A stretch of DNA of 64,000 nucleotides from Thermoanaerobaculia bacterium (GTDB lineage: Bacteria > Acidobacteriota > Thermoanaerobaculia > Gp7-AA8). The first letter of the stretch is position 1. Each line of letters begins with the position of its first letter. The notes beneath the pieces are model-generated. The model worked only from the letters and a program-made list of their open reading frames with translations. It was not told the DNA's origin and made no database searches. Positions 12,812 through 15,800 of this stretch are shown in pieces. Position numbers and translations under genes: made by a program. The stretch spans positions 1,263 through 65,262 of the forward strand of contig DATLOL010000080.1 in NCBI GenBank assembly GCA_035536275.1. Reading direction: 5' to 3'.

Positions 12812-15800
12812 CGGTTCCGGCTCATACCCCAGATTCGGCGCCAGCCAGCGCTCCACCTCTTCCACCGTCAGTCGCTTCCGCCGCGCGTAATCCTCCGCCT
12901 GGTCACGCCCGATTTTCCCCACCGCAAAGTAGCGCGCCCGCGGGTGCGCAAAGTACAGGCCGCTCACCGACGCCGCGGGCGTCATCGCGTAAGACTCCGT
13001 GAGTTGCATGCCCACCTTCTCCGCGCCCAGGAGCTCGAAGAGCGTTTGCTTCTCGGTGTGATCGGGCGAGGCCGGATAGCCCGGCGCGGGACGGATCCCG
13101 CGATATCGCTCCGCGATCAGCTCCTGGGCTGACAGGCTCTCGTCCTTCGCATACCACTCCCGCCGCACGTCGCGGTGCAGCTTCTCCGCGAGCGCCTCGG
13201 CCAGGCGATCCGCGAGAGCCTTGGTCATGATCGAGTTGTAGTCATCGTGGTCCTTCTGGAATCGCGCGACCAGCTCCTCGACGCCGATCCCCGCCGTGAC
13301 GGCGAAGCCGCCGACGTAGTCGTTCTCGCCGACAAAGTCCGCGAGCGCGAGGTTCTCGCCGGTGTTGGTCTCCTGCTGCTGGCGCAGGGTGTGGAACGTG
13401 GCGCCGGCGAGCACGATGTCGTCGCCGTCGCGCTTCGCCGGCCAGATGCCGTACACGGCGCGCGCCTTGAGCAGGCGTTTCTCGATGATCTCGCGCAGGA
13501 GCTCCTGCGCATCGTCGAACAGCTCCTTCGCCCGCGGCTCCTCGAGGATCTGCGGGTAGCGGCCGCGCATCTCCCAGGTCTGGAAGAACGGGGTCCAGTC
13601 GATGAACGGCTCGATCTCACCGAGGGGCACGTCGTCGAGCACGCGCACACCGGTGAAGGGCGGCGGCTCGGGCGCGAAGTCGAGCTTCGCGGCGCGTCTC
13701 CGCGCCGCTTCGATCGGCAGGATGGTGATCTGCCGCTGCTCGATGCCGGCACGGAGCTTCTCGTATTCGGCGGCGACGTTCGTGGTGAACGGCTCGCGCG
13801 CGTCGGAGAACAGCGAGCTGACCACGCCGACGGCGCGCGAAGCGTCGAGCACGTGCACGGTTGGGTGGGAATACCGCGGCGCGATCTTGACCGCCGTGTG
13901 CAGTTTCGACGTCGTCGCGCCGCCGATGAGCAGCGGCACAGTGAACCCGCGGCGCTCCATCTCCCGCGCCACGTGCACCATCTCGTCGAGTGACGGCGTG
14001 ATGAGGCCGGAGAGGCCGACGATGTCGACGTTCTCCTTCTGCGCCGTGTCGAGGATCTTGTCCGCCGCGACCATCACGCCGAGGTCGAGGACTTCGTAAT
14101 TGTTGCAGCCGAGGACGACGCCGACGATGTTCTTGCCGATGTCGTGGACGTCGCCTTTCACCGTGGCCAGCAGGACCTTGCCGCGCGCGCGTGTGTCGCC
14201 GGACTTCTGCTTCTCCGCCTCCATGAATGGCAGCAGGTAGGCCACGGCCTTCTTCATCACCCGCGCGCTCTTCACGACCTGGGGCAGGAACATCTTCCCC
14301 GCGCCGAAGAGATTGCCGACGATGTTCATGCCGTCCATCAGCGGCCCTTCGATGATCGACAGGCCGGTCGGATACTTCGCGCGCGCTTCCTCGACGTCCT
14401 GGTCGATGTGGTCGACGATGCCTTTCACGAGGGCGTGGGAGAGGCGCTCCTCGACCGTACCGCTGCGCCAGGCCTCGGCCTCCCTGGCTGTAGTCGCAAC
14501 TTGTCCCTTCACGGTATCGGCGAAGGTGACCAGCCGCTCCGTCGCGTCGGGACGGCGGTTGAGCAGAACGTCCTCGACCAGCTCGAGCAGGTCCTTCGGG
14601 ATCTCCTCGTAGATGCCGAGCTGTCCGGCGTTGACGATGCCCATGGTCAGGCCGGCGCGGATCGCGTGATAGAGAAACGCGGCGTGCATAGCCTCACGGA
14701 CGACGTTGTTGCCGCGAAAGGAGAACGAGACGTTGGAGATGCCGCCGCTGGCGTTGGTGAGCGGGAGCTTCTCGCGCAAGCGCCGTACGGCCTCGATGAA
14801 TGCAATGCCGTAAGCGTTGTGCTCCTCGATGCCCGTCGCCACGGTGAGCACGTTCGGGTCGAAGATGATGTCGGTCGGGTTGAACCCGACCTCGTTCACG
14901 AGGATGTCGTACGCGCGCGAGCAGATCTCGAGCTTGCGCTCGATCGTGTCAGCCTGCCCCTGTTCGTCGAAGGCCATGACCACGACCGCGGCGCCGTAGC
15001 GCCGGACCAGCCGCGCGTGCTGCTTGAAGACCTCTTCGCCTTCCTTGAGCGAGATCGAGTTGACGACGCCTTTGCCCTGCAGGACTTTCAGTCCGGCCTC
15101 GAGCACGGTCCACTTTGAGCTGTCGACCATGATCGGCACGCGGGCGATGTCGGGCTCGGAGGCGACGAGGTTGAGGAAGTCGCTCATCATCTTCTCGGAG
15201 TCGAGGAGACCCTCGTCGAAGTTGACGTCGAGGATGTTCGCGCCGCCTTCGATCTGCTGCTTGGCAACGCGCAACGCCCCTTCGAGATCGCCTTCCTTGA
15301 CCAGCTTCGCGAACTTCGGCGAGCCGGTCACGTTGGTGCGCTCGCCGACGACGATGAATTGGGAGCCTGCCGCTTGCGTGTCATCCCGTGCTTCAGCACG
15401 GGATCCCCCCGTTTCAGCAGGAGATCCCTCGACTTCGCTCGGGATGACACTACTGCCGTCCTCGATACGCGAGTGCTGCACCGTCAACGGCTCCAGCCCA
15501 CTCAAACGCAAATGCGGCTTGATGACCGATGGCACGCGCGGCGGCAGCGTGGCCACCGTCTCCGCGATCAGGCGGATGTGATCGAAGCCGGTACCGCAAC
15601 AGCCGCCCACGATGTTCAGCCAACCGTTGCGCGCGAAGTCGCGCAGCACTTCGGCCATCATCGACGGCGTCTCGTCGTAGCCGCCCAGCGCATTGGGCAG
15701 GCCGGCGTTCGGATAGCAGGAGATGAAGATCGGGGCGAGGTTCGACAGTTCCTCGACGTGCGCGCGCATCTCCTCCGCGCCCAGCGCACAGTTGATGCCC

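Follow-up and report, generated by a model that had tools for sequence, protein, structure and literature searches.

The 64,000-nucleotide stretch of DNA analysed here (the window) comes from a Thermoanaerobaculia bacterium of the Acidobacteriota (GenBank assembly GCA_035536275.1, contig DATLOL010000080.1, positions 1,263 to 65,262). It carries metH, the gene for cobalamin-dependent methionine synthase, and a 73-bp palindromic element lies in frame within this gene at positions 15378-15450 of the window. On the + strand the element begins with GTGTCATCC and ends with GGATGACAC. Our data indicate, with a probability of about 0.8, that this segment is a miniature palindromic element of the repetitive extragenic palindromic (REP) type, which was inserted at the linker between the homocysteine (Hcy)- and folate-binding domains of MetH and is carried there as a passenger.

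The element and its place in MetH

The metH gene occupies 12764-16528 on the - strand. It is an intact open reading frame (ORF) of 1254 residues and the sole long ORF of the region. All five Pfam domains are found in its product, namely S-methyl_trans (residues 19-325), Pterin_bind (residues 395-633), B12-binding_2, B12-binding and Met_synt_B12, with E values from 1e-110 to 1e-18. The whole non-canonical linker segment (15359-15478, - strand) corresponds to residues 351-390 and lies between LEPLTV and FIVVGERTN; it consists of 10 residues, the repeat and TQAAGSQ. The repeat, read on the - strand, gives the in-frame peptide (S), 23 residues and (T). Neither a stop codon nor a restart codon occurs inside the insert. 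In each orientation two of the three frames of the element are stop-free, and the third is closed by TGA within GGATGAC. An earlier reading of the window from its letters alone (the sequence-only reading) had described a member of a repeat family at 15378-15450, translated into 24 residues without disruption of the metH frame. The coordinates and the translation agree exactly with the sequence and with the ORF translation, and the statement on the frame holds, since the gene is intact with its five domains and the insert is stop-free.

Two TGTC-tagged REP units, joined head to head with their tags pointing outward, make up the element. Unit 1 (15378-15407), which was identified in a regular-expression census, reads GTGTC-ATCCCGTGC-TTCA-GCACGGGAT-CCC on the + strand and has a TGTC tag, a perfect 9-bp stem starting with AT, a 4-nt loop and a C-rich tail. 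Its stem differs from the copies at 43679 and 36776 by a compensatory pair of changes, C>T and G>A. Unit 2 is inverted (15423-15450), reads GTGTC-ATCCCGAGCGAAGTCGAGGGAT-C on the coding strand and encodes VIPSEVEGS. It is identical at 26/26 positions to the copies at 43774 and 61083 and at 25/26 to the copy at 57545, and the same 26-mer is also present in the PspC gene of a related genome, L163 (GCA_034680565.1). The stem of this unit type (ATCCCGAGCGAAGTCGAGGGAT) is imperfect, and pairing is limited to ATCCC/GGGAT plus a few inner bases. The predicted fold of the 111-nt region is one long hairpin (-51.3 kcal/mol, z = -3.2). Rfam contains no family that matches the element. In a peptide search, no protein had three 5-residue words in common with a query of 40 residues, which says nothing on whether the peptide occurs in other proteins.

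The repeat family to which the element belongs (family B) is present beyond chance, as the sequence-only reading had supposed: the 26-nt half-unit has five copies in the window at no more than three mismatches, compared with 0.00 expected from 100 shuffles. Complete TGTCATCC…GGATGACA dimers are found at 15379, 43609, 43718, 57464 and 61015, and further copies are a 33-bp single unit at 9659 and a partial unit at 36771. Within the 64 kb there are thus five tag-outward dimers and two to three single units. All 13 termini examined read (C/A)G-TGTC-ATCC, and the right end of the unit at 9659 holds CGTC as well. The stem-loop ATCCCGYGC-(TTCA/TGAA/CTCG)-GCRCGGGAT occurs at 15383, 36776 and 43679, and the unit tails are C-rich, either CCC or CTC (GGGAT-CCCC, GGGAT-CTC). 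A second family (A) in the window, TTT-ATCCCGCG…CGCGGGAT-CTCGGGTGC, has the stem in common with family B and differs in tag and tail.

An AlphaFold2 model built with 41 aligned sequences had a predicted template modelling score (pTM) of 0.86, and the predicted local distance difference test score (pLDDT) was mostly above 90 in both barrels. Residues 357-389, between the strands 347-350 and 392-394, had a pLDDT below 50 and no secondary structure. In this model the insert most likely forms a loop on the surface, disordered and placed between two confidently predicted barrels. The structure of human MetH (4CCZ) could be aligned to window residues 9-350 and 389-672, and 38 residues in the window protein correspond to 3 in the human enzyme at this point.

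The hairpin might instead act at the level of nucleic acid: as a signal for processing, pausing or stabilisation it would uncouple the expression of the two metH halves and be a step towards split genes. The strong predicted fold (-51 kcal/mol, z = -3.2) would suit such a role, metH is split at the same point in other phyla, and a REP unit in the PspC gene keeps its rare codons across genomes. REPs are also described, in a study of such repeats (PMC3733652), as stabilising upstream mRNA and as RNase targets. This explanation is nevertheless highly improbable, given that there is no terminator-like or promoter-like site in 15200-15650, that the insert lacks a stop or restart codon, that the sister genome L163 is without the element and that Rfam offers no matching family. 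Three further candidates were set aside. An intragenic terminator or promoter was dropped because no such site exists in or near the insert, and translational bypassing and an intron or intein were rejected in view of the uninterrupted frame, the shortness of the segment and the absence of relevant motifs.

Relatives, recency and mobility

The best MetH matches of the window are metagenome-assembled genomes (MAGs) of Thermoanaerobaculia (Acidobacteriota), and a neighbouring protein is 100% identical to P0121 of the same class. In a metagenome scan the best MetH match was only 70% identical and no relative was closer. Among the sequences surveyed, 12 residues separate GLE from [IV]GERTN in 106/120 proteins, at 70/82 genome loci and at 72/80 metagenome loci (about 86-90%).

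The genome L163 was found via synteny with the PspC gene. It is syntenic with the window for an ECF sigma factor, a PspC-domain protein, an aldo-keto reductase, an arginine decarboxylase, a TPR protein, metH and PEMT, and it is the window's sister with 85% bootstrap support (339 flanking columns). The L163 MetH has 1218 residues and is 90.2% identical to that of the window, and the single internal gap in the alignment is a 31-residue (93-nt) block that contains the repeat. The L163 linker reads LEPLTV-RSTEAAGSQ-FIIVGERTN. In L002, P0003 and P0012, which belong to the same clade as the window with 98-99% support, the linker is the canonical TVT[PA][ED]SNF. The extension in the window is therefore 31 residues (93 nt) compared with L163 and 35 residues (105 nt) compared with the canonical linker, and the repeat makes up 73 nt of each. 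The sequence-only reading had attributed a lengthened linker to the repeat and had proposed an alignment of MetH orthologues. The lengthening is present, but it is larger than the repeat (93-105 nt compared with 73 nt). In the alignment, L163, L002, P0003 and P0012 are without the segment, and repeat-free relatives with the same linker sequence were not seen.

The dimer is flanked by an imperfect direct repeat. Its upstream copy (15453-15464, - strand; CGAGGACGGCAG) and its downstream copy (15367-15377, - strand; GCAAGCGGCAG) both resemble a single CGAGGCCGCGGGG at the empty site of L163. These direct repeats may be a duplicated target, or the element may have been lost from L163 by an event between them. 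The excess over L163 adds up if an extra TCGCGTAT is counted (73 + 12 + 8 = 93).

The content of G and C at third codon positions (GC3) is 11/23 (0.48) in the repeat core compared with 0.90 in the rest of metH (P = 4e-7), and 22/40 (0.55) compared with 0.90 for the whole non-canonical linker (P = 9e-9). A different insert at the same linker in P0001, described below, has a GC3 of 0.67 compared with 0.95 for its gene (P = 5e-8). The GC3, the 26/26 identity of the half-unit to intergenic copies and the intact palindrome point to recently acquired non-coding DNA.

Another member of the family provides a filled site and an empty site. A single family-B unit (9657-9699, + strand) lies in the spacer that separates the aldo-keto reductase gene from that of the arginine decarboxylase. 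In the window …CACGTGA is followed by CGGTGTCATCC…GAATGACACGACGC and TGA and then by TTTGTTC, whereas in L163 (11484-11495) …CGCGTGA is joined directly to TTTGTTC. The filled site thus consists of 40 nt plus a 3-bp TGA duplication. In a further genome, L164, the same spacer contains a different element. Because the site is empty in L163 and filled in the window, family B is shown at the sequence level to be mobile, and the mobile nature that the sequence-only reading had ascribed to the repeat is borne out. A classical miniature inverted-repeat transposable element (MITE) would have terminal inverted repeats, a target-site duplication of constant form and a parent insertion sequence with matching ends; family B has terminal inverted repeats, this one TGA duplication at 9657-9699, and no parent insertion sequence within the window. 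At metH, the element was probably inserted in the lineage of the window after its split from L163, as opposed to having been lost in L163.

Occupants of the linker in other lineages

Palindromes are found at the MetH linker in other lineages. P0001 (L081), whose flanks are 91% identical to those of the window, has a different, intact dimer of 99 nt (GTCATCCTGAGG…GCTCAGGATGAC) that gives the peptide VILRPAEGEGPPAEAREASDRGGSFAVSAAQDD. P0002 has a 75-nt dimer (VILSRGDGEGSQATQREILRSAQDD), and P0005 (L082), which belongs to a separate clade (73-75% bootstrap), has a 75-nt dimer with a decayed right end. In L001 the linker holds an unrelated, GC-rich perfect palindrome (GTTGGAGCGGCGGGGCT…AGCCCCGCCGCTCCAAC), which is a member of a repeat family found in the L001 genome itself (7 matches compared with 0.47 expected). 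Several related lineages thus carry different palindromes at this linker, so the event is not unique to the window genome and its history of gain and loss is less simple than a single acquisition. Insert-bearing taxa were monophyletic in 0/500 bootstraps, and the linkers of the insert-free L002 and P0003 are identical to those of the outgroups L084 and L085 (TVTPESNFIM). Taken together, these two results favour repeated gains.

The palindrome family of L001 (10451-10515 and 13650-13722), with TGGAGCGGCGGGGC arms, has an in-frame copy at the MetH linker and another about 2 kb downstream inside metH, and a related hairpin stands directly after the metH stop codon. In P0085, a MetH homologue from another group that is 58% identical, a Ser/Glu-rich insert of 30 residues (SESSESLEGSEGSQRSEPSELSQPYKPSEPS) is found at the linker.

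The source of the window is a MAG, in which chimeric joins can arise from short repeats, and a repeat copy might have been misassembled into metH in the metagenome bin. Such an artefact is extremely improbable. Both flanks continue one gene in one frame, the inserted length divides exactly by three and contains no stop, and three independent assemblies (L081, L082 and P0002) have analogous in-frame dimers at the same site. At 73 bp the element is also shorter than typical reads or k-mer joins, so single reads would span it.

Several other points weigh against a recently inserted passenger. P0001, the next relative (73% bootstrap), also holds a dimer at the linker, and one gain followed by a loss in L163 requires about as many events as two gains, so that the direction is not proven. 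The four TGTC-type inserts are all in the same reading frame. A derived …AGSQF flank is common to the window, L001, P0002 and L163, a hint that the site may have an older, shared history, and the L086 linker, RNDGGEGSQF, is footprint-like. Older occupancy with conversion, replacement and loss is possible. Only 73 of the 93-105 extra nt are recognisable as repeat, and the remainder (the 10 residues and part of TQAAGSQ) is tentatively explained as an imperfect duplication of about 12 nt plus 8 nt. No transposase lies beside the TGTC units within the window. The 13 termini have no common target motif, as the three upstream bases differ, and no consistent target-site duplication was found, duplication being present at just one or two of the copies. 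That the insert is translated is deduced from its open frame.

Part of this evidence would fit a single ancestral entry in the Thermoanaerobaculia clade, with the element kept genome-like by conversion or re-insertion and lost in L163, L002, P0003 and P0012. The four TGTC-type inserts not only share one frame (GTC ATC C… / …GAT GAC) but also lie within a few codons of each other. The shared flank, [AE][AE]AGSQF in the window, L001, P0002 and L163, is absent from canonical linkers, and RSTEAAGSQ of L163 matches P0002 minus its repeat (RSN joined to AEAGSQ). The L086 linker resembles a repeat footprint, and the in-frame unit in the PspC gene persists across orthologues of 64-74% identity. However, the linkers of L002 and P0003 equal those of the outgroups, and loss would have to restore the ancestral sequence exactly, several times. 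The four dimer interiors differ in sequence and length (69, 99, 75 and 75 nt), and P0005 stands in a separate clade. The window copy has a GC3 of 0.48 and a half-unit identical at 26/26 positions to intergenic copies, although conversion could mimic the latter. We consider a single old entry rather unlikely.

Large domain rearrangements are part of the catalytic cycle of MetH. The flexible residues might have been selected for altering how the barrels move against one another or against the B12 domain, with the repeats as raw material. The need for these rearrangements, and the presence of long inserts at one site in at least five lineages, from two unrelated palindrome families plus P0085, would be consistent with such an adaptive extension. 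Nevertheless, the linker has a constant length of 12 residues in 86-90% of the surveyed MetH sequences, the closest relatives function although they lack the insert, and the inserted peptides are alike only as the repeat DNA dictates. The insert is also predicted to be disordered and contact-free, its codon usage is unameliorated, and the insertion of such repeats into many unrelated proteins speaks against functional constraint, as argued by Di Nocera et al. (PMC3733652). Adaptive extension of the linker is very unlikely.

The same linker is a point of division in other bacteria. A stop codon is found there in metH of L025 (Hyphomicrobium), L038 (Archangium), L058 (Verrucomicrobiia) and several metagenome contigs (L100, L128 and L132). 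The stop is followed by a new start shortly after (for example SGLEPFVHG, stop, …M…), which corresponds to two-gene, split methionine synthases with the same boundary. Phaeobacter has a functional methionine synthase that is split between the Hcy and folate domains (Price et al. 2018, PMC5764234). The MetH linker is probably occupied recurrently because it is permissive.

We return to the insertion of a passenger. A dimer of two TGTC-tagged stem-loops of about 30 bp each would have inserted into the DNA for the linker between the Hcy- and folate-binding barrels. The insert could survive because the net gain in length is divisible by three (93 nt compared with L163), because the frame in use is stop-free and because the linker tolerates added residues; under these conditions translation of the repeat would give about 31-35 residues of disordered loop. 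The repeat would then be a passenger and not a functional module. Movement may take place as single-stranded hairpins through an HUH/Y1 transposase acting in trans. The element would not target the linker; rather, selection would purge insertions almost everywhere else, a permissive-site filter that may account for the occupied linkers in other lineages.

It is unlikely that the MetH and PspC linkers are instead a recurrent landing pad or "safe harbour", to which at least two unrelated palindrome families are attracted or in which they are kept by conversion. If this were true, element turnover would drive linker lengthening, footprints (…GEGSQF, …AAGSQF) and eventually the gene fission seen in other phyla.

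Other repeats in the window and known systems

Repeats also meet coding sequence elsewhere in the window. A head-to-head dimer of family A, with GTTT tags and the ATCCCGCG stem, occupies 12700-12811 (- strand) and extends across the stop codon of metH. The last approximately 14 residues of MetH come from its unit 1 (12774-12811), and its unit 2 (12700-12739) lies downstream. The GC3 of this MetH tail is 10/16 (P = 3e-3). The MetH proteins of relatives end in short, different tails (…YEPEAALV, …YEPEAAPALA and …YEPEFRNAAAEAAAL, each before the stop). The tail of L163 MetH, AAAEAAAL, is itself encoded by a GC hairpin (GCGGCGGCCGAAGCCGCCGC).

The linker of an anti-sigma-like protein with a PspC domain (ORF 8171-8839), whose gene comes after the ECF sigma factor gene, contains a single in-frame family-B unit (RVIPSEAEGPPA; 8306-8340, + strand). 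The unit encodes VIPSEAEGPP. The peptide is present at this site in P0122, P0124, P0125, P0128, P0130 and P0133, and it is absent in P0123 (81% identical) and others; the unit persists at the same site across many, not all, orthologues of 64-74% identity. In L163 the DNA of the site is identical at 26/26 positions to the repeat consensus of the window, with the rare codons kept (L163 and L164, 10136-10170). The cause could be an old insertion, conversion or a constraint at the DNA level.

The gene of a VTT-domain protein (42948-43619) has its stop codon inside the terminal repeat of a family-B dimer (43608-43619; …GTCATCCTGA), and the C-terminus of this protein is thereby set by the repeat. 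The sequence-only reading had taken all copies outside metH to be intergenic. This does not hold throughout: the half-unit in the PspC gene is in frame, the copy at 43608 gives the upstream gene its stop codon, and a related family-A unit forms the tail of MetH.

Two further kinds of repeat were observed. Arrays of a 9-nt unit (ATAGGTCCY / ATACGTCCT) are present at 27577-27626, 41758-41834 and 49836-49903, with 11 overlapping registers; they are AT-rich for the genome and lie near gene boundaries. A repeat of about 45 nt (core TCAGTGATCGA[AC]G[AC]ACG[CT]CCGCCA) has five copies in 51444-51781 with spacings of 21, 63, 104 and 105 nt. These copies are apparently intergenic and lie upstream of a family-A dimer.

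The window encodes one Y1 (IS200-like) transposase (ORF 1187-1684; Pfam Y1_Tnp, E = 1.6e-22). The ORF is flanked by inverted GTAG hairpins that are 97% complementary (1146-1191 and 1733-1780) and match the Rfam small RNA (sRNA) family Acido-Lenti-1 with 52 and 48 bits. The layout of the locus (1146-1780) is that of a REP/RAYT unit. This suggests that what Rfam lists as the Acido-Lenti-1 motif is a REP associated with a transposase, not an sRNA standing by itself. No connection of this transposase with the metH element was seen in the window. Its flanks are of the GTAG type, with no TGTC units beside Y1_Tnp in the 64 kb, a further point against the mechanism proposed above.

Palindromic selfish repeats in frame in unrelated genes are known from Rickettsia as RPEs, or Rickettsia palindromic elements (Ogata et al. 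2000, Science 290:347, cited after PMC10969869 and PMC3733652). RPEs are short palindromes in housekeeping genes that are translated as fold-compatible extra peptides, with intergenic copies as well. A fold-compatible insertion in a functional gene is found here too, since metH is intact with a predicted disordered loop and a second in-frame unit lies in the PspC gene. The metH element can therefore be likened to an RPE by behaviour and architecture, not by the sequence of any RPE family. The host differs in being a free-living bacterium of another phylum (Acidobacteriota, Thermoanaerobaculia) whose GC content is 66%, the length of the element is 73 bp compared with about 100-150 bp for RPE-1, and sister lineages have other elements at the same site. 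Intragenic ERIC and BOX elements and cyanobacterial MITEs have likewise been described (PMC10969869).

The closest description is that of the CGTC-tagged REPs. According to Di Nocera et al. (2013, PMC3733652) these have a CGTC, TGTC or CCTC tag, an 8-9 bp stem starting with A/T pairs, a loop of 4-5 nt and a 3-nt tail with the consensus CCA. They occur mostly as head-to-head dimers without a linked transposase, their intragenic dimers encode 20-30 residues, and RPE-4 and RPE-6 of R. conorii belong to them. The same paper reports the family from five phyla, mostly from Alphaproteobacteria, and mentions Acidobacteria in its text only with regard to transposases. The metH element resembles this description, rather than a consensus sequence, in its TGTC tag, 9-bp stem from AT, 4-nt loop, head-to-head dimers and lack of an adjacent transposase. 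Compared with the published description, the tail is CCC in place of CCA, though C-rich and of similar length, and the imperfect stem of the second unit type (ATCCCGAGCGAAGTCGAGGGAT) agrees only in part.

In REPIN/RAYT systems, in which REP doublets are mobilised by IS200-like Y1 transposases, two inverted REP units form one long hairpin as they do here, and the window genome encodes a Y1 transposase with inverted REP-like hairpins. The difference is that the transposase is not flanked by the same REP, its flanks within the 64 kb being of the GTAG (Acido-Lenti-1) type. Split methionine synthases (PMC5764234) share the PF02574/PF00809 boundary, and the tight covalent link is dispensable there. 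Those are fissions or separate genes, whereas the polypeptide of the window is continuous and lengthened.

For annotation, read-through of REPs makes odd linker and C-terminal sequences in MAG proteins, which should not be taken as functional motifs. One linker carries different palindromes in four to five related lineages and is a fission point elsewhere, and it therefore provides a natural series in which to ask how multidomain proteins have their linkers reshaped by mobile hairpins. In-frame palindromes are already known in kind; what is new is the host lineage and the host gene, together with the presence of different TGTC-type dimers at the same linker in three other Thermoanaerobaculia lineages and of an unrelated palindrome in a fourth. 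The metH element extends the selfish palindromes of the Rickettsia type in essential enzymes to a free-living, high-GC lineage of soil and sediment and to a well-studied modular enzyme.

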